Source of the DNA: Escherichia coli
GTDB lineage: Bacteria > Pseudomonadota > Gammaproteobacteria > Enterobacterales > Enterobacteriaceae
NCBI RefSeq assembly: GCF_044324785.1
Contig: NZ_CP172127.1
Length of the DNA stretch: 64,000 nucleotides
Reading direction: 5' to 3' (one strand)
Both the position numbers and the translations under genes were made by a program. Within the stretch, counting starts at the first letter, position 1. Each line of letters opens with the position of its first letter. The notes below the pieces were generated by a model. The model was given only the letters and a program-made list of their open reading frames with translations, was not told the origin of the DNA and ran no database searches. Positions 5,040 to 15,260 of the stretch are shown piece by piece.

Positions 5040-7514
5040 ATGAGACAGGAATGTATACAAGCGGTCCAGCAGGCGGCGCAGCGCACGTTAACGGCGCGAG
5101 AAATACAGAACATTGAAGACCGCATTTATCGAAATATGCGCTCCATTGCTCGTGATGACCCGATGTCGTGGAGACAACTTTCCGAATCAGAGCGGCTATA
5201 TCGTGCAGCACAATTGGCATCTGAAGAATTACAGCGAGAAGCGGCATTAAAGAAACGTCGTGTGGCCCTCACTATAGCCGCACGTCAGAGATTGGATAAA
5301 TTTATCAATAGCTATCAAGGGGCTGATGGGAAACTTGGCGCTCTTAACCGTACTATTGCTTTTAATGCAGACGGTAAATCGAATTTCCTCTCTGTTGAAT
5401 CCAGAACAAAAGCCACTCGTGATTATGCATTGAGTCAATTGCAGGAGGCATTTGAAGCAGTTGATCCTCGCTTTTTTGGCCTGTTTGAAGATGAAGCTGG
5501 CGTGCGTGACCTGGTATATGAAATGCGAGGGCAAAATACTGGCAATGCTAAAGCAAGAAAAGGTGCTAAGGCGTGGAGAGAAGTGACAGAGCTACTGCGC
5601 CGCCGGTTTAATGATGCTGGTGGGGACATTGGCTATCTCGAAAACTGGGGGCTCCCTCAACATCATTCTATGGAAAAGGTTGGGGCGGTATCAAAGGATA
5701 AGTGGGTTAGCGATGTTATAGGTAAGCTGGATCGCAAATATTATACCCGAGTCGATGGACAACTGATGAACGATGCCGAGTTGTCTGCATTTCTTGGAGA
5801 GGCTTATAACACGATCGCTACTGGTGGGCTGAATAAGCTTACTGATACCGGAATGCGAATTTCCGGCGCACGTGCTAACCGGGGTAATGCATCACGACAG
5901 ATACATTTCAAAGATGCAGATTCCTATCTGCAATATCAGCAACTTTATGGCGATCGCTCTCTATGGGAAATCATGGTCGGTCACCTGGAAGGTATCAGTA
6001 AAGATATTGCACTGGTGGAAACATATGGCCCAAACCCCGATCATGTTTTCCGCTCTCTTCTTGATCAGGTGAAGGCAGAAACGGCAACAGCTAACCCGAG
6101 TAAAACCGGTAAAGTCGAGCGGCTGGCGAACAACACAGAGAATCTGTACAACTTTATTTCCGGAAAGACACAGCCTGTAGCGAATCCGCACATCGCGCGA
6201 TGGTCTGACAATATCCGCAACTGGCTGGTTGCCAGCAGACTCGGATCCGCGTTGCTGTCATCGTTCTCTGATCTTGGAACCATGTATCTGTCTGCGAAGG
6301 TTACCAACCTTCCAATGAACCAGTTATTCCGCAACCAGCTTGAAGCTATGGACCCAACGAACCGTACAGAACTTGCGCGGGCGCGCCGCGCTGGTCTGGC
6401 GATGGAATCTCTACTTGGCAGCGTTAACCGCTGGGCGATGGATAATATGGGGCCGTCTGTGTCTCGTTGGGCTGCAACGGCGGTAATGCGTGCCAGTGGG
6501 CTTACAGCATGGTCAGATGCGCACAAGCGCGCCTATGGCGTAACCATGATGGGAAGCCTGGGAGAAGTAGTGTCACGGACACCAGACCTTCGTAGCCTCG
6601 ATGATTCTGATTTTCGTATCCTGAAAAGCAAAGGGATTACTGACACAGACTGGAGCGTATGGAAGCTGGCGCAACAGGAGGACTGGGGGAACGGTAATAA
6701 TACGATGCTGACACCGGAAAGCATTATGCGTATCCCTGATTCAGCAGTTAAACATCTTGGTGAGCCTGAACGCGTGAAATTTGAGGCAATGCGTAAACTG
6801 CTCGGTGCCGTAACTGAAGAAGTTGATATGGCTGTTATTACACCGGGTGCACGTGAGCAACTGATAACCGGTTCTGGTATTCAGCGTGGAACATGGAAAG
6901 GTGAATTAACGAGAAGTGTTTTCCTGTTTAAATCGTTCCCTATCTCGGTGGTTATGCGTCACTGGTCACGCGCTATGGGTATGCCGTCGGCTGGTGGGCG
7001 TGCGGCATATATTGCGACGTTTATTGCCAGTACGACCATTCTTGGCGCTTTGTCGCAGCAACTTAACGACCTTGCGTCTGGTCGTAATCCTCGCGAGATG
7101 ACAGGAGAAGATGCTGCTAAATTTTGGCTTGGTGCTCTACTGAAAGGTGGTGGTCTTGGCCTTTACGGTGACTTTTTATTGTCAGATCACACTAGGTACG
7201 GAAGCGGCGCGCTGGCGTCGATGCTTGGCCCGGTAGCTGGTCTGGTTGATGACGTAGTGAAGATTGCTCAGGGCATACCGTTAAATGCTGTGGAAGGGAA
7301 GAATGAGCAGACTGGTGGTGATCTGGTTAAGCTGGGGAAAGGTCTGATGCCAGGTGCGAATCTCTGGTACTTAAAGGCGGCTCTCGATCACATGATCTTT
7401 AACCAGATGCAGGAGTATTTTTCACCAGGTTATTTGCGTAAAATGGAGCAACGTTCGAAGAAAGAGTTTAACCAGACATACTGGTGGCGACCACAGGATG
7501 TCACTCCGCAATAA
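5040..7514 (+). CDS. Large phage virion/ejection protein, 824 aa
   Basis: ORF track; RBS gagagg upstream; last gene of coupled block. Confidence 0.5.
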   Translation: MRQECIQAVQQAAQRTLTAREIQNIEDRIYRNMRSIARDDPMSWRQLSESERLYRAAQLASEELQREAALKKRRVALTIAARQRLDKFINSYQGADGKLGALNRTIAFNADGKSNFLSVESRTKATRDYALSQLQEAFEAVDPRFFGLFEDEAGVRDLVYEMRGQNTGNAKARKGAKAWREVTELLRRRFNDAGGDIGYLENWGLPQHHSMEKVGAVSKDKWVSDVIGKLDRKYYTRVDGQLMNDAELSAFLGEAYNTIATGGLNKLTDTGMRISGARANRGNASRQIHFKDADSYLQYQQLYGDRSLWEIMVGHLEGISKDIALVETYGPNPDHVFRSLLDQVKAETATANPSKTGKVERLANNTENLYNFISGKTQPVANPHIARWSDNIRNWLVASRLGSALLSSFSDLGTMYLSAKVTNLPMNQLFRNQLEAMDPTNRTELARARRAGLAMESLLGSVNRWAMDNMGPSVSRWAATAVMRASGLTAWSDAHKRAYGVTMMGSLGEVVSRTPDLRSLDDSDFRILKSKGITDTDWSVWKLAQQEDWGNGNNTMLTPESIMRIPDSAVKHLGEPERVKFEAMRKLLGAVTEEVDMAVITPGAREQLITGSGIQRGTWKGELTRSVFLFKSFPISVVMRHWSRAMGMPSAGGRAAYIATFIASTTILGALSQQLNDLASGRNPREMTGEDAAKFWLGALLKGGGLGLYGDFLLSDHTRYGSGALASMLGPVAGLVDDVVKIAQGIPLNAVEGKNEQTGGDLVKLGKGLMPGANLWYLKAALDHMIFNQMQEYFSPGYLRKMEQRSKKEFNQTYWWRPQDVTPQ

Positions 7515-7523
7515 GGAAGTGTT

Positions 7524-7697
7524 GTGTTTTTAATTATTTTGAGTGTGATAATTTCTGGTGGATTGTTATTTATTGACCGCTACAAATATTTTCTTAACCC
7601 TCAGACTCAAGCTATTTGCTGGTTCATCTTTGTTGTGCAGGGAGTAGTTCTTGTTGCAAGCCTTATTGAGGGGAGGCCTCTTATTTTTACTGGGTAA
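7524..7697 (+). CDS. Small hydrophobic protein, 57 aa, GTG start
   Basis: AAGGAAG 4 nt before GTG 7524; translation is almost entirely hydrophobic; not in ORF track (<60 aa). Confidence 0.3.
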   Translation: MFLIILSVIISGGLLFIDRYKYFLNPQTQAICWFIFVVQGVVLVASLIEGRPLIFTG

Positions 7698-7710
7698 ATT
7701 AGGTGACTAC

Positions 7711-8007
7711 ATGCAAGCTATAGGATTCATTGTTTATATCGTCGTTGGTCTTTTTCAGTTGGCAGCAATTATGGCTGGGCTTGAATCATGGTGGGGATTG
7801 CACTGGATAATTGCAGCCCCCATTGCTTTCATCGTGAGCTATATTCCATTTGTTGGAGCGATTGTTGGTATGGTTGGCGCTGTGGATGTATGGCGGTGGG
7901 AGTGGTGGCAGGCTGGCCTTCTCTTCTTTGGTGGGATCATCTTTGCTATTGTCTGCGGTGGAATGTCATCATTTTTCGAATGGCTATCATTCAGAAAAGG
8001 GACGTGA
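7711..8007 (+). CDS. Small integral membrane protein, about 99 aa (candidate superinfection-exclusion type)
   Basis: ORF 7651..8007; likely start ATG 7711 after AGGTGA; several hydrophobic segments. Confidence 0.45.
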   Translation: MQAIGFIVYIVVGLFQLAAIMAGLESWWGLHWIIAAPIAFIVSYIPFVGAIVGMVGAVDVWRWEWWQAGLLFFGGIIFAIVCGGMSSFFEWLSFRKGT

Positions 8008-8015
8008 CATGTCAC

Positions 8016-8040
8016 AGGCCGCTTTCGCGGCCTTGTTTTT
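8016..8040. terminator. Hairpin plus T-tract terminator, likely bidirectional
   Basis: aggccgc-tttc-gcggcct followed by tgttttt directly after stop at 8007. Confidence 0.55.
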
Positions 8041-8200
8041 AACGAATGCCACCGCCGCCTGGGCGGGAATCCGCAGAACGCCCACCGCAGCGTGAGCCGT
8101 CAGCAGCAGTGTCGCTGTCGTGCTGACAACGACCGGCAAAGGCCTGAGTTGAAGCTACCAGAGACAACAAAACGAACAGTGCAGCAAATGCTTTTTTCAT
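8039..8200 (-). CDS. Small exported peptide, 53 aa, signal peptide with AFA cleavage motif and two-Cys Gly-rich mature part
   Basis: Internal ATG 8200 of ORF 8039..8272; N-terminus MKKAFAALFVLLSLVASTQAFA; own promoter. Confidence 0.3.
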   Translation of the reverse strand: MKKAFAALFVLLSLVASTQAFAGRCQHDSDTAADGSRCGGRSADSRPGGGGIR

Positions 8201-8267: not shown

Positions 8268-8293
8268 TCCACAAAAAAGCCCGCAGCGCGGGC
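8268..8293 (-). terminator. Rho-independent terminator of the two-gene cassette
   Basis: Minus strand GCCCGCGCUGCGGGC hairpin followed by UUUUUUG, overlapping stop codon at 8293-8295. Confidence 0.6.
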
Positions 8294-8733
8294 TATTCTT
8301 CTTCATCATTAAAAAGCGGATTGTTGTTTCCATCTGATGAAAGGAAAGGTATGTGTTCTCTTGAAAATCCAACAATGACAATTTCATTATCATTTTTTGC
8401 ATAATGAATGCATTCATTAGAATGCCTTCCGCCAGGGTTGAAATTTAAGTTAATGGTATAATTCTTAAATGTGTTTGGATACCATGTTGGCCCACAATGA
8501 TAATGCCAATAATTCTCTTGCTCATAATTGTCTGAGCCGGGAATTTTATCATGGTTATCATCAACCCACGAGGGCTTGTTTTTTCCAACAAGCGCCCTTC
8601 CATTGGCAACATCCTCTAAAAAACTTTGTATGATTTTTATTTCATCATCAGTAAGGAAAGGTCCGTCTACAGCGAAAGGGGTGTTGCTTTCCCCATGTAG
8701 AAAACTATTAGATATTCTAATGTTAAACTTCAA
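8293..8733 (-). CDS. Unknown 146-aa protein, no internal Met, proposed TTG start, acidic C-terminus (AT-rich cargo gene)
   Basis: Frame of ORF 8293..8874; AGGAG 6 nt before TTG 8733; upstream part of the 193-aa ORF overlaps a better-supported small gene in another frame. Confidence 0.45.
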   Translation of the reverse strand: MKFNIRISNSFLHGESNTPFAVDGPFLTDDEIKIIQSFLEDVANGRALVGKNKPSWVDDNHDKIPGSDNYEQENYWHYHCGPTWYPNTFKNYTINLNFNPGGRHSNECIHYAKNDNEIVIVGFSREHIPFLSSDGNNNPLFNDEEE

Positions 8734-10476: not shown

Positions 10477-13233
10477 ATGACGGTCTCAACCGAAGTTGAC
10501 CACAACGAATACACCGGTAACGGCGCTACGACATCATTTCCGTATACCTTCCGTATTTTCAAAAAATCCGACCTGGTTGTTCAGGTGTCTGACCTGAACG
10601 GGAACGTAACAGAATTGGTTCTGGATACCGGTTATACGGTAACTGGGGCGGGCACTTATAGTGGCGGTTCTGTTGTTCTTCCGTCGCCGCTTGCTGCTGG
10701 ATGGCGAATTACGATAGATCGTGTGCTTGATGTAGTGCAGGAGACAGACCTTCGCAATCAGGGAAAATTTTTCCCCGAAGTGCATGAAGATGCTTTTGAC
10801 TACCTGACGATGCTGATCCAGCAATGTTTTGGGTGGTTCAGACGTGCATTGATGAAACCATCTTTGCTTGCAAAATATTACGATGCAAAGCAAAACAGAA
10901 TTTCTAACCTTGCAGATCCATCACTTGAGCAGGATGCTGTAAATAATCGCTCAATGCGTAATTATGTTGATGCTGCAATCGCCGGAGTTGTTGGTGGTTT
11001 TGGTTGGTTTATTCAGTATGGTTCTGGAGCAGTATACCGAACGTTCCAGGATAAGATGCGGGATAACGTTAACGCTCTTGATTTTGTTCCGTTTGAGCAA
11101 AGATATGCTGCATTAAATTTTGAAGTTGATGCGTCTGAATGGTTAATTAATGCGATAAATTCTGGTGCAAGTGTCGTTAGAATACCTGCAGGTAAATGGA
11201 TGATTTCTAAGAACATAGATGTGCCTCCTGGAGTGTCATTAATTGGTGATGGCATTGATTATTGGGATACATATAGACCAGCGCCTGAAAGATTATTAAA
11301 AAGTTGGAGTAAAGGAACCCATCTTGTATTTACTGGTGATGGAGAAAAAAACAAATATTTTTTTAACATCTCTAATGAAAGACCAGTTAAAATTGTTGAA
11401 GGGATATCTTGTAAGTTCACTGAGTTTACAAATGAAGATTCTGTAGGTGTTACTCCTGCTACACCAAAAGCCATGAGCGTAGCTGTTAGTATCAACAGGG
11501 CATCACAGTTACGCAACCTGAGAATAATGGTAAGTAAAAATGGTATTGAAGGATACAATAACCCTGATTCTTATTCATTGGGTGATGACTGGGATATAGG
11601 GTTGCATGTATACGATAGCTGTGATTCAGTTATTGATAACGTACAGATTGTCGGCTATTGGAGGGTAAAAGGACTACTACTGACAGAAAATGACGGGAGC
11701 CTTTCAATGAAGGGAAATCCTGAAAAAACGCACTTTAATAACGTTTATGTCCAGTCAGGGATCGCGATAAGGAATAGCCCTCAGATTGATCTTGTAAGTA
11801 ATACTGAAAGCTCAGTGACATTTAAACATAAAAAGTCGATGAGAATAACTTCAGTTAAACAGTTTAAAATTGCTGGCAGTGAATTAGTATATACGTATTC
11901 AGATGCATCATTTGATGGAACTAACATCACACTATCTGGTATTTCTCCTGAAATACAAGGTACAATAAGTGTAATCAGGTTTCCGTCAATTGGTAATAAT
12001 TTTAGCGGGACTGTTTTTGAGAATACAGTAGCCACTACTCTTGATCATACATCAGGTAAGCCATCAGAATACTTTGGCCTTCCTGCATCCTTTGCATTAG
12101 AGGTTGATGGTTTCCCTGTTCGTAATTTAAGGTTTGATAAATTCAAAGCTCAAACAACATTTGATAAAGGAAATTGCATTTTTGGTGATTGCCGTGATGT
12201 TAAAATAACATCATCTGAGTTTGAAAATGGAATTATGATTGCGTATAACCTGACCGAGACTCAGGGTTATACAGGAAATCTTAGATTTTTTGCTTCTGAT
12301 CTTCAGAGCAGCGTTAACACAAGTGAGTTTAAACCAAGAGACGCATTTGTAGACAATAGACAAATAAAAACGGAGTTTACTGATGGTTCGTTCATTATAA
12401 AGAACTGGAGGCCTACAGATACAAAAATACAATGGTCGTCTGGAGCAGATGCTATTGTTCTTAGAGAGTCACCTGACGAACAATCAAACGGAAATATTTA
12501 CGGGCATCACATTGATGGTAAAAGATGGATTAATGTTAGTGGATATAACAAAGATATAAATATTTCATCAAGAAACTTAAGCGTAAAAAACCATGGTGAT
12601 GACTCTGCAGTTATTAATATATTCGGCGACTCTGGAAATATTGCCATTAAAGGTAATTTTTCACCAATTATTGATAACAGCAAATCTCTTGGTGCACCAT
12701 CATTTAGATGGGCACAGGTTTATTCTGCGAACGGTTCGATAAACACATCAGATGGTAGAGAAAAAAGTGAACCGATTAGTACAAGTGAGCTCAGCTTGTA
12801 TATGTCTCGTGGTTATGAAGGTGATGCAATTCTGGATGCATGGGGAGATATCAGGATTGTAGCTTTTCGCTGGCTTGATGCCGTCAGGGAAAAGGGAGAT
12901 GGTGCCCGCTGGCATTTTGGTGTTATAGCACAACAAGTGAGAGACGCTTTCCTCGCGCATGGGATTGATGGAACCAGATTTGGCCTTCTCTGTTACGATG
13001 AATGGGATGATAAATACGCGCCAGTGATGGCGGTAAGGATGATCACTAAAGTTGTGGATGGCGTCGAAATTGAGATGGAAGAAGAATACGAAACAGAAGA
13101 GCGAACTCTGGTTTGCAAGGCTGGAAATAGGTGGGGTATCCGTACTGACCAGTGTTTATGGCTTGAGTCAGCTTATTTGCGTAGAAGAATCGAAAAAATA
13201 GAATCACGTCTTGCAATGCTTGAAAGTAGCTAA
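10477..13233 (+). CDS. Tailspike/tail fibre, 918 aa: T7 gp17-like N-terminal anchor, AT-rich central receptor-binding part, C-terminal intramolecular chaperone (peptidase S74-like) domain
   Basis: ORF track; GGAG RBS; N-terminal pattern resembling podovirus fibre anchors; C-terminal SDGREK motif region; GC drop in the middle. Confidence 0.8.
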   Translation: MTVSTEVDHNEYTGNGATTSFPYTFRIFKKSDLVVQVSDLNGNVTELVLDTGYTVTGAGTYSGGSVVLPSPLAAGWRITIDRVLDVVQETDLRNQGKFFPEVHEDAFDYLTMLIQQCFGWFRRALMKPSLLAKYYDAKQNRISNLADPSLEQDAVNNRSMRNYVDAAIAGVVGGFGWFIQYGSGAVYRTFQDKMRDNVNALDFVPFEQRYAALNFEVDASEWLINAINSGASVVRIPAGKWMISKNIDVPPGVSLIGDGIDYWDTYRPAPERLLKSWSKGTHLVFTGDGEKNKYFFNISNERPVKIVEGISCKFTEFTNEDSVGVTPATPKAMSVAVSINRASQLRNLRIMVSKNGIEGYNNPDSYSLGDDWDIGLHVYDSCDSVIDNVQIVGYWRVKGLLLTENDGSLSMKGNPEKTHFNNVYVQSGIAIRNSPQIDLVSNTESSVTFKHKKSMRITSVKQFKIAGSELVYTYSDASFDGTNITLSGISPEIQGTISVIRFPSIGNNFSGTVFENTVATTLDHTSGKPSEYFGLPASFALEVDGFPVRNLRFDKFKAQTTFDKGNCIFGDCRDVKITSSEFENGIMIAYNLTETQGYTGNLRFFASDLQSSVNTSEFKPRDAFVDNRQIKTEFTDGSFIIKNWRPTDTKIQWSSGADAIVLRESPDEQSNGNIYGHHIDGKRWINVSGYNKDINISSRNLSVKNHGDDSAVINIFGDSGNIAIKGNFSPIIDNSKSLGAPSFRWAQVYSANGSINTSDGREKSEPISTSELSLYMSRGYEGDAILDAWGDIRIVAFRWLDAVREKGDGARWHFGVIAQQVRDAFLAHGIDGTRFGLLCYDEWDDKYAPVMAVRMITKVVDGVEIEMEEEYETEERTLVCKAGNRWGIRTDQCLWLESAYLRRRIEKIESRLAMLESS

Positions 13234-13247
13234 ATATTGAGGATTAA

Positions 13248-13300
13248 TCTTAGTAGCCGACTTGCTTATTACGAAGTAAGTTCGGCTTCTTTCTTCTTTA
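13248..13300 (+). terminator. Candidate terminator after tailspike (imperfect hairpin plus T-rich tract)
   Basis: agccgacttgctt...aagttcggct followed by tctttcttcttt. Confidence 0.35.
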
Positions 13301-13462
13301 ATTGTGACTGAGAGGTACACTAGACCATTTTCTGAACGAAATTTTCATTGCCGTAGAAGGTAGAAATACAGCGTTTTGAGGTAACTATTATCCTTAAATG
13401 GTTTATTATGTGTGAATCTTCAATAGTAAGGAGATTGTTATGCGTAATAAACGGTGTTCATT

Positions 13463-13867
13463 ATGTCAGCCCATCTAACTACTGATTCTTTAAATCAATG
13501 GCTTAGTGTGAGCTCTCTTGCTGCAGTTATCGTAGGCGTTCCGCCAGAGGTGGCGCTCGGTGCTCTTGCTGGTGCGGTAATTTTTGTTACCTCTGCGGTA
13601 GAGTACCCAATTCATCGTCGCGTACTCTTATCGATGCTTAGCTTTCTCTGTGGACTTCTTTTCTACAAACCAGCAGCATCAATTCTTATCGGCATAGCCA
13701 GCCTGATCCCTACCATCACGCAGGACTCTTTTGAAAAAGGGATTGTTTTCTCTGCTGGCGCATTCGTGTCAGCAATTGTCGCTGTGCGTATTGGTATATG
13801 GCTCTACCACCGTTCAGACAATCCACGCGATTTAATTCCGGGGAGAAAAGACGATGGTAACGCATGA
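13463..13867 (+). CDS. Membrane protein with multiple TM segments (holin partner or second holin type)
   Basis: ORF 13454..13867; hydrophobic stretches; start GTG 13454 or ATG 13463. Confidence 0.45.
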   Translation: MSAHLTTDSLNQWLSVSSLAAVIVGVPPEVALGALAGAVIFVTSAVEYPIHRRVLLSMLSFLCGLLFYKPAASILIGIASLIPTITQDSFEKGIVFSAGAFVSAIVAVRIGIWLYHRSDNPRDLIPGRKDDGNA

Positions 13868-14162
13868 GTTTTTTTTGCTTATCACCAATGCAGTTATTTG
13901 TACTGGCATAGCAATTCGCGTTGTCACATTCCGGCGTAACGGCTCTCAACATCGAAGATGGGGAGGGTGGCTTGCTTATTTCCTTATTGTTGCTGCGGCC
14001 AGTATTCCTGTTCGTGTCGTCTATGCAATCTGGTTACGCACGCCAATGGCTGTGGATTTATCTGAGGTCATTATCAACGCTGTCATGCTTGCCGCGGTTA
14101 TTAAAACACGCGGTAACGTTGTTCAGATTTTCAAAATATCGAGGTCTAAACATGGAGATTAA
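13854..14162 (+). CDS. Holin, 102 aa, three predicted TM segments, basic C-terminus
   Basis: ORF track; position immediately upstream of and overlapping endolysin. Confidence 0.55.
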
Positions 14163-14781
14163 ACAATTCCAGCGAGCTGCTGGTATTAGCGAGGCGCTGG
14201 CCGCACGCTGGTTCTCGCATATAACTTCTGCGATGAAAGAGTTTGGTATCAGCAAAGCAGAAGATCAGGCAATGTTTATTGCTCAAGTCGGGCATGAGTC
14301 TGGGGGCTTCACCAGGTTGCAGGAGAATTTCAACTACAGTGTCAGCGGACTGGCTAACTTCGTTCGGGCTGGGCGTCTCACTCAGGGGCAGGCTAATGCA
14401 CTGGGTCGCCATGCTGGTGAACCACCATTGCCACTCGAGCGCCAGCGAGCGATTGCCAATCTGGTGTACAGCAAACGCATGGGGAACAATGCCCCCGGCG
14501 ATGGCTGGAATTACCGTGGCCGCGGACTTATCCAGATTACCGGTTTGAATAACTATCGTGATTGCGGAAACGGCCTGAAAGTGGACCTGCTGGAGAATCC
14601 TGAACTGTTGGCGCAGGACGAATACGCGGCTCGTAGCGCGGCGTGGTTCTTCTCCAGCAAAGGTTGCATGAAGTATACCGGCGATATTGCACGTGTAACT
14701 CTGATTATCAATGGTGGCAGGAATGGCATCGACGACCGGCGCGCGCGGTACGTCACTGCCAGTAAGGTGCTGGCGGTATGA
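14152..14781 (+). CDS. Endolysin, glycoside hydrolase family 19 type, about 209 aa
   Basis: Internal start ATG 14152 (GAGG 7 nt upstream) of ORF 13921..14781; [11 protein letters not shown] motif typical of GH19-type endolysins. Confidence 0.8.
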
Positions 14782-15260
14782 TCTGGGCATTCGTAAAAGC
14801 ATACTGGAAACAGTTGATTATCGTGGCAGTGCTTGCTGTTCTGGTCATATCAGGAGTTGTTGCCTGGAATGTACACGGTATCCGTCAGTACGACGCCGGG
14901 TATGCGCAGGCGAAAGAAGACTGCAAAGCCGAAGAAGAAAAAGTTCGTCAGTACTACGAACAGGAGAAAGTGACCAATGAACGTGAAGCTCAGCAGAGGA
15001 TCGACCAGGCGCGCAATGATGCTCTTGATGCTGCCGCTAGCGCTGGCCGGTTGCAGCAACAACTCTTTGCCATCCGTGAGCAGCTCAGGCAGTATAACGC
15101 CATTGTCGGCGCTGGGTCGTCAGCCGCAGACACCGGAGTTTTGCTTGCCGACGTGCTCAGCAAATCTCTCGAGAGAAACAGACAACTGGCAGAGTATGCT
15201 GACCGGGCAGCCGAAGCCGGAAGAGTCTGCGAAAAACAGTACGACACTTTGACCAGATAG
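14778..15260 (+). CDS. Rz-like i-spanin, 160 aa, N-terminal TM then coiled-coil
   Basis: ATGA overlap with endolysin stop; TM helix then charged helical region. Confidence 0.7.
15016..15252 (+). CDS. Rz1-like o-spanin lipoprotein embedded in the Rz gene in another frame
   Basis: ORF 14977..15252; lipobox LALAGC; Ser/Pro-rich mature region; ends 8 nt before Rz stop. Confidence 0.65.
   Translation: MMLLMLPLALAGCSNNSLPSVSSSGSITPLSALGRQPQTPEFCLPTCSANLSRETDNWQSMLTGQPKPEESAKNSTTL

Follow-up and report, generated by a model that had tools for sequence, protein, structure and literature searches.

What is encoded between a large virion gene of an Escherichia coli prophage and the terminator that closes its late operon, and do the products exclude superinfecting phages? 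The interval lies at positions 7524-8040 of a 64,000 nucleotide (nt) stretch of contig NZ_CP172127.1 (assembly GCF_044324785.1), which we refer to in its entirety as the window, and whose first 16-17 kb form the right-hand part of the prophage. A first-pass annotation, made from the sequence alone, described two small membrane proteins here and proposed them as a candidate superinfection-exclusion pair. We find that the interval contains two open reading frames, ORF1 and ORF2, which we regard with high confidence as real genes for accessory inner-membrane proteins that do not constitute an obligate pair. They are best explained as two separate genes of the 'moron' type that lie one after the other where the late structural operon ends. 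Exclusion of, or defence against, other phages at the step where DNA enters across the membrane is the best single guess as to their role, albeit a tentative one.

ORF1 and ORF2 are genuine genes

ORF1 (7524-7697, + strand) is a GTG-initiated, hydrophobic 57-codon frame preceded by an AAGGAAG ribosome-binding site, exactly as first described, and its start lies 9 nt past the stop of the upstream gene for a protein of 824 amino acids (aa). The Shine-Dalgarno (SD) sequence (7513-7519, + strand) overlaps the TAA of that gene (7512-7514) and ends 4 nt before the GTG, with a predicted energy of -6.9 kcal/mol for its duplex with the anti-SD. ORF2 (7711-8007, + strand) starts with ATG, 13 nt past the ORF1 stop, and its own SD sequence, AGGTGA (7701-7706, + strand), is part of a conserved sequence at the left edge of the ORF2 cassette. 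The product is a polytopic inner-membrane protein as proposed, of 98 aa and not 99, the latter being the number of codons with the stop included. A mechanical list of open reading frames shows only a TTG-extended 118 aa form of this gene (7651-8007), as the first-pass annotation had recognized, and the same wrong start has been given to ORF2 in the annotation of phage phiv142-3. The ATG is the start in 28 of 28 aligned homologues, most of which begin with MQAIG, and RefSeq likewise annotates 7711-8007.

Purifying selection acts on both frames, which are intact and whose SD sites are conserved; ORF1 and ORF2 are thus genuine genes that look translated, are maintained by selection and encode small helical membrane proteins. 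Thirteen ORF1 homologues were found in the database, of 56-58 aa and with 67-98% identity, in E. coli and in members of Citrobacter, Klebsiella, Salmonella and Enterobacter; comparison with copies that are 66-79% identical gives ratios of non-synonymous to synonymous substitution (dN/dS) of 0.19-0.28 at a dS of about 0.7. The frame is open in every one of about 70 loci and always starts with GTG or TTG, and a purine-rich SD sequence is always present 4-6 nt upstream even though its sequence varies (AAGGAAG, GGGGGA, GGGGAGGGG and AGGAGGGGG); in diverged copies the SD and start are retained as TAAGGGGGATCC-TTG and TAAGGAGGGGGA-GTG. ORF2 has 52 homologues with identities down to 44%, and its dN/dS is lower still, at 0.02-0.05 with saturating dS values of 1.2-3. 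Of complete E. coli genomes, 204 contain ORF1, and in all of their listed records RefSeq and its Prokaryotic Genome Annotation Pipeline (PGAP) leave it unannotated, which is a systematic gap in small-protein annotation.

The possibility that these are spurious frames in a non-coding spacer between the virion operon and the terminator draws on the omission of ORF1 from RefSeq, its GTG start and the G+C content of its region, which is 37.5%. However, dN/dS values well below 1 for both frames, their intactness, the retention of the SD sequences, an ORF1 length held at 56-58 aa across genera and confident AlphaFold2 (AF2) models effectively refute this explanation.

Predicted structures and family searches

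The ORF1 protein has a grand average of hydropathy (GRAVY) of 1.31 and two hydrophobic segments, and the AF2 model (predicted local distance difference test score, pLDDT, of 79) places helices at residues 2-20 and 26-49, forming a two-helix membrane hairpin. The loop, D18-R-Y-K-Y-F-L, is nearly invariant and is expected to be cytoplasmic because of the positive-inside rule, so that ORF1 would have an N-out/loop-in/C-out topology with both ends in the periplasm.

The ORF2 model is of higher confidence (pLDDT 90.9), with helices at residues 2-28, 32-42, 46-59 and 65-97. Residues 32-59 may be read in this model as a single span kinked at the invariant Pro46 of a Y-I-P motif, and the most likely topology would then have three spans, N-out and C-in, although a re-entrant middle hairpin may be an alternative. 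The invariant residues also include Q16, G53, G56, W63 and the motif W-x-W-x-W-W-Q-A-x-L-L-F-F; two interface segments, ESWWGLHW and VWRWEWWQA, are rich in tryptophan, and a basic C-terminal tail extends about 8 residues beyond the last helix. Prediction of transmembrane (TM) topology, the check that had been suggested for these proteins, thus agrees with the original description, with two helices for ORF1 and three spans for ORF2 from hydropathy and AF2 models.

Neither protein matches a Pfam, NCBIfam or PADLOC family, and no PADLOC-DB v2 model matched ORF1, ORF2 or a neighbouring 53 aa protein at E≤1. Scanned against PHROGs, ORF1, ORF2 and the neighbouring proteins matched only families of unknown function: ORF2 residues 1-98 match positions 1-98 of the phrog_3075 profile (E=1.6e-54), a family to which no function has been assigned. 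On the Pfam side there was a single sub-threshold holin match, that of ORF2 to Phage_holin_5_2 (15.2 bits against a cut-off of 29.2; E=0.027). Foldseek searches of BFVD and the PDB with ORF2 gave only noise (best E>4); the top PDB fold matches are pores of K+ channels, and are not significant (E>5, TM-score 0.38). A PDB sequence search with a profile of 52 diverse ORF2 relatives found nothing, and these 52 members matched no Pfam family, including those of holins, except for one weak match to DUF4112.

An accessory slot in a Uetakevirus prophage

The element is a prophage of the epsilon15/phiV10 group of Uetakevirus, to which its annotated relatives also belong, and is not P22-like as had first been implied. 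Around ORF1 and ORF2 the sequence shares 98-99.9% identity with Escherichia phages phiv142-3 and HEMP4. Genes for an 862 aa SLT-type protein and a 600 aa protein precede the 824 aa gene (5040-7514, + strand), whose product matches phrog_684, 'virion structural protein' (E=0), and is a homologue of phiV10 gp20 and epsilon15 gp17, both annotated as virion structural proteins; it is a probable internal virion protein of the ejection or core type. The first-pass annotation took this to be the last virion gene. It is the final large gene of the late structural block of head and internal-protein genes, but not the last virion gene, since a tailspike gene (10477-13233) sits downstream of ORF1, ORF2 and an antirepressor block.

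The late operon is closed by an intrinsic terminator (8016-8040, + strand) with the sequence AGGCCGC-TTTC-GCGGCCT followed by TGTTTTT. Its 7 bp G+C-rich stem (8016-8033) has a folding energy of -17.2 kcal/mol (z = -2.3), which bears out the earlier designation of a strong terminator, and related loci likewise have this hairpin after ORF2. The stop codon of ORF2 is overlapped by a perfect 12 bp palindrome, GTGACATGTCAC (8004-8015), which probably forms a minor additional hairpin in front of the terminator. We considered that it might be a repeated operator, but there is no excess of copies within the window beyond chance.

ORF1 and ORF2 behave as accessory cassettes in this position: they are present or absent among collinear relatives, have swappable partners and possess conserved edges. 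Neither is present in epsilon15 or phiV10, where the slot is occupied by the non-homologous two-TM proteins gp18 (64 aa) and p21 (46 aa), and a search with 901 bases shows the phiV10 DNA match breaking off near where ORF1 begins and picking up again at the terminator. Like ORF1, gp18 and p21 are encoded on the same strand, have two TM helices and are followed by the operon terminator, and PhiV10p21 is annotated as a 'putative integral membrane protein'. Homology with ORF1 is undetectable, with 21% identity to p21 in alignment and an hhalign probability of 0.7% with gp18; epsilon15 and phiV10 differ also in having no ORF2.

ORF1 is directly upstream of ORF2 in 65 of 80 IMG/VR loci containing ORF2, while in the remaining 15 the upstream gene encodes an unrelated 54 aa two-TM protein, a 103 aa two-TM protein, a 123 or 102 aa secreted protein or a 175 aa secreted protein. 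In Cronobacter, Kosakonia and Salmonella prophages ORF2 directly follows the big virion gene, 2-35 nt past its stop, and in Salmonella Muenchen a 127 aa lipoprotein replaces ORF2 after ORF1. We therefore reject the interpretation as an obligate two-gene system, and with it the word 'pair', because ORF1 and ORF2 are each found without the other. On its left side the ORF2 cassette is bounded by (T)AAATAGGTGACTAC-ATG, which is almost unchanged whether it lies behind ORF1, the 103 aa two-TM gene or the 123/102 aa secreted gene, and the palindrome together with the terminator constitutes a conserved right edge. Since varied genes for small membrane proteins, secreted proteins and lipoproteins replace one another here, small proteins targeted to the envelope have a recombination hot spot in the interval following the gp17 homologue.

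Distribution and the wider ORF2 family

At least a partial match to the stretch surrounding the two genes is found in 555 of 5,426 complete E. coli genomes, and about 4% of complete E. coli genomes contain ORF1 and ORF2; about 250 further genomes match only bases 303-340 of the query, which include the terminator. Just 6-7 of 50,697 phage records contain the genes, all from Escherichia or Klebsiella phages and none of them P22-like, and every taxonomy line checked for these is Uetakevirus. Among the E. coli matches, three come from records that are classed as plasmids; one of these, NZ_CP076267.1 (E. coli NADC1036), is 38,709 bp long, about the length of a phage genome, and is possibly an excised or episomal Uetakevirus genome.

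Four lineages, represented by E. coli, Cronobacter/Kosakonia/Klebsiella, Salmonella and Yersinia, have an ORF2 homologue after their final big internal-virion gene. The big proteins of these lineages are only 26-36% identical or are different in type: 824 aa in E. coli, 848 aa in Cronobacter and Klebsiella, 833 aa in Salmonella (with a T7_gp14-like neighbour) and 1130 aa in Yersinia. The Yersinia copy (locus L098) is alone on its own strand because a minus-strand gene intervenes. In a metagenomic prophage (loci L099 and L100) ORF2 lies beside Bro-N genes and an integrase, away from recognizable virion genes, and two further loci (L101 and L102; 4023-7312) contain a 103 aa homologue within an element encoding primase, SSB, AlpA and integrase, located after the gene for an 872 aa SLT-domain protein. 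The cargo beside this homologue is variable and resembles defence genes: one copy has Abi_2, and the other has SocA_Panacea together with PP2C and a protein kinase.

A profile search with ORF2 identifies 749 clusters at 50% identity (E≤0.001), mostly of 90-120 aa, with some members fused to DUF805, RDD or MORN domains, although these fusion partners are uninformative. Among species-representative genomes the diagnostic ORF2 motif was found only in Klebsiella pneumoniae and Microvirga tunisiensis. The Microvirga homologue (NZ_VOSK01000111.1; locus L097, 4989-5279) is 96 aa long and 56% identical, and is located among aconitase, TctC and GntR genes in what looks like an ordinary chromosomal neighbourhood, where its stop overlaps the start of a gene for a 416 aa secreted protein that belongs to no family.

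Exclusion as a candidate role

What might these proteins do? We consider phage exclusion or defence at the membrane DNA-entry step to be the best single guess, with a probability that falls short of even, because of the location of the genes, the envelope targeting of all occupants of the slot, the persistent linkage to ejection genes and the lack of an O-antigen-modification module. With regard to the last of these, there is no O-antigen-modifying gene between the tailspike and lysis genes of the prophage (13233-13454), the interval that contains oac in phiV10 and polymerase and inhibitor genes in epsilon15. ORF1 and ORF2 would insert into the inner membrane and might there disrupt the channel, assembled by incoming podoviruses from their ejection proteins, that delivers DNA across the envelope, as P22 SieA and T4 Imm do.

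ORF1 and ORF2 belong to a temperate podovirus and lie between its last ejection-type gene and its tailspike gene, just as P22 sieA sits directly after gene 16 and before mnt/arc/ant and the tailspike gene 9; sieA occupies that interval in all P22-like prophages examined (PMC10883804). The slot corresponds to that of sieA, in line with the positional analogy of the first-pass annotation, even though the phage is of another group. SieA is a protein of the inner membrane with three predicted TM helices, as ORF2 has three spans, and its gene is likewise accessory, being present in 22 of 66 P22-like phages as types A, B and C. Escape mutants of P22 that overcome SieA map to the ejection proteins gp16 and gp20 (PMC10883804). 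However, sieA is transcribed from the opposite strand by its own promoter and is expressed in the lysogen, whereas ORF1 and ORF2 are the last cistrons of a late operon, and at 162-164 aa SieA is longer than either ORF1 (57 aa) or ORF2 (98 aa). The conserved cytoplasmic C-terminal motif of SieA, FxRYPxEAxxFNK (PMC10883804), is absent from the ORF1 and ORF2 sequences, and the parallel holds in position only.

T4 Imm resembles ORF1 in architecture, being an 83 aa protein with two hydrophobic stretches around a short basic loop, and it leaves superinfecting DNA in the periplasm; by hydropathy and AF2 helices, ORF1 but not ORF2 is a two-TM hairpin of this kind. T4 imm is an early gene, and it belongs to a virulent myovirus, in contrast to the late-operon genes of a temperate podovirus described here. 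A third comparison is with gp15 of HK97, which work by Cumby et al. in 2012, cited in PMC11436027, is said to have proven to be an exclusion protein that blocks DNA entry and has cellular homologues (YebO). It is reportedly a small inner-membrane protein encoded by a moron inside the late structural operon, with its own promoter and terminator and with expression from the prophage. HK97 is a siphovirus, gp15 is of another protein family, and no promoter was found at ORF1 or ORF2.

Several observations weigh against an exclusion role. Comparisons using hhalign show no homology to either model protein, with probabilities for P22 SieA of 0.2% (ORF2 profile) and 0.04% (ORF1 profile), and for T4 Imm of 1.4% (ORF1) and 0.25% (ORF2). 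Both genes are co-oriented and tightly coupled with the late operon, and a scan for sigma-70 consensus sequences reveals no + strand promoter upstream of either start; expression in the lysogen, which classic prophage exclusion needs, is therefore unsupported. By default ORF1 and ORF2 would be co-transcribed with the late virion genes by read-through, and lysogen expression would require an unrecognized weak promoter. The sole candidate from a relaxed scan, an extended -10 sequence, TGTGATAAT (7544-7552, within ORF1), was rejected as an ORF2 promoter: it degrades in diverged copies, and such conservation as it has is no evidence for a promoter since coding constraint accounts for it. A hairpin at the 3' end of ORF1 (7667-7683) was similarly discarded as an attenuator, as it is no better than shuffled sequences (z=+0.5). 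The extreme conservation of ORF2 is atypical of an exclusion factor engaged in an arms race, and the size of its family and the chromosomal homologue in Microvirga also count against this role. Near-identical ORF2 copies (94%) adjoin big virion proteins sharing only 26-28% identity, which speaks against specific co-evolution with the neighbouring ejection protein. Finally, we found no functional data on ORF1 or ORF2 in the literature, and the sole functional study of a phage carrying both genes, phiv142-3, reports nothing for either; neither is among the serum-up-regulated genes in the paper on transcription of that prophage, in which baseline values are not given.

A more specific form of the exclusion role, and one that we regard as quite unlikely, is that ORF2 belongs to a large unnamed family of three-span proteins of mobile elements that would jam the inner-membrane end of the ejection-protein channel. 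ORF1, or whichever variable gene is the first cistron, might then be a swappable specificity or helper partner, and expression from the late operon would bring about exclusion during lytic growth and not in the lysogen. Such jamming would explain why ORF2 has stayed downstream of ejection genes in at least four podovirus lineages despite their divergence.

Alternative roles

ORF2 could be a captured cellular protein that alters the host inner membrane, changing transport, stress tolerance or envelope homeostasis to the benefit of the lysogen or infected cell, with no action on phages and with ORF1 as an unrelated passenger. The breadth of the 749-cluster family and its fusions to DUF805, RDD and MORN, the metabolic gene neighbourhood of the Microvirga homologue, the very strong purifying selection on ORF2 and the lack of a match to any defence family would all suit such a general moron, and we rate it as somewhat unlikely. 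It is countered by the finding that all Enterobacteriaceae ORF2 copies examined are in an accessory region of a phage or integrative element, and the postulated physiological function is without any hint; moreover, cellular homologues need not be at odds with exclusion, as the HK97 exclusion protein gp15 is likewise said to have ubiquitous ones. A late function in the lytic cycle, either in lysis timing as a holin- or antiholin-like protein or in the handling of membrane-active internal virion proteins, accords with the tight coupling to the late operon and the lack of a separate promoter, and every Uetakevirus examined has a small TM protein after the gp17 homologue, be it gp18, p21, ORF1 or, in Cronobacter and Kosakonia, ORF2. 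In its size, three spans, predicted N-out/C-in topology and basic C-terminal tail ORF2 resembles class I holins such as lambda S105, to which the sub-threshold Phage_holin_5_2 match may be added, and ORF1 is similar in size to the two-TM class II holins such as phage 21 S68, which like the class I proteins are expressed late. Nonetheless, that match is below the curated cut-off, and ORF1 and ORF2 are not in a lysis cassette beside an endolysin gene: the prophage already has a separate and complete one (13454-15260). Epsilon15 and phiV10 do without ORF2, which is thus dispensable to them, and ORF2 is also found beside an integrase gene (L099/L100), between two opposite-strand genes (Yersinia L098) and on a bacterial chromosome. 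Holins are seldom so conserved, and the secreted proteins and lipoproteins among the slot occupants suit neither of these late roles, which on balance we think unlikely.

It is also conceivable that the proteins are membrane effectors of abortive infection (Abi), forming or gating an infection-triggered leak that kills the cell, much as lambda RexB or small membrane toxins do, and not blocking DNA entry. Their small size and great hydrophobicity, the non-ATG start of ORF1, which fits low and controlled expression, and the Abi_2 and SocA_Panacea genes adjoining ORF2 homologues in one element are in keeping with this, as are the K+ channel fold matches; these, however, are at the level of noise, no sensor partner is evident and there is no similarity to known Abi or toxin families. 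As the cellular homologues of ORF2 also speak against a toxic effector, we consider this role to be improbable.

If either protein does exclude phages it would found an exclusion family that is new and has no relation to SieA, with carriers among about 4% of complete E. coli genomes and among prophages of Klebsiella, Salmonella, Cronobacter and Yersinia. It would offer, beside P22 SieA, a second means of studying the passage of podovirus ejection proteins through the inner membrane, and would have practical consequences for which hosts therapeutic or diagnostic phages of the phiV10 type can infect. If these are ordinary late accessory genes then the finding is routine and would not surprise a phage specialist. 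Whatever the function, there is value for annotation in recognizing that RefSeq misses ORF1, that the ORF2 start is sometimes wrongly extended and that the interval from gp17 to the tailspike gene is a hot spot.

Neighbouring genes

Beyond ORF2 is a block of minus-strand genes encoding a 53 aa secreted peptide, a 146 aa protein, a 55 aa protein, an AntA/AntB antirepressor and a gp19-like protein, and this is followed by the tailspike gene. The lysis cassette, about 5.5 kb downstream of ORF1 and ORF2, contains two holin-family genes, a GH19 endolysin gene and further lysis genes, after which the chromosomal genes begin.

One of the neighbouring genes bears on a published phenotype. The phiv142-3 gene 'orf10' (QGF19616.1) is reported to raise serum resistance and the expression of K1-capsule genes (PMC7724020). 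It corresponds to an ORF of about 52 aa (8445-8603, - strand) that is nested out of frame within the intact 146 aa gene (8293-8733, - strand; RefSeq WP_112864197.1; phrog_5954, E=7e-74); at locus L003 the 146 aa gene and the nested orf10 are at 6894-7334 and 7046-7204 respectively. The published orf10 deletion phenotype probably belongs to the 146 aa protein.

The 53 aa gene (8039-8200, - strand) converges on ORF2 and shares the terminator region with it. Its product is in phrog_14503, 'membrane associated protein' (moron category), and has a clear signal peptide (MKKAFAALFVLLSLVASTQAFA, followed by G) and a 31 aa mature part that is rich in Gly, Arg and Asp and contains two Cys residues. This gene occurs with or without ORF1 and ORF2, and is also present in phage TL-2011b, from E. 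coli O103:H25. Between the 53 aa and 146 aa genes there is a G+C-rich hairpin, AGCCCGCAGCGCGGGCT (8278-8294), with T-rich tails on both strands, which resembles a bidirectional terminator.

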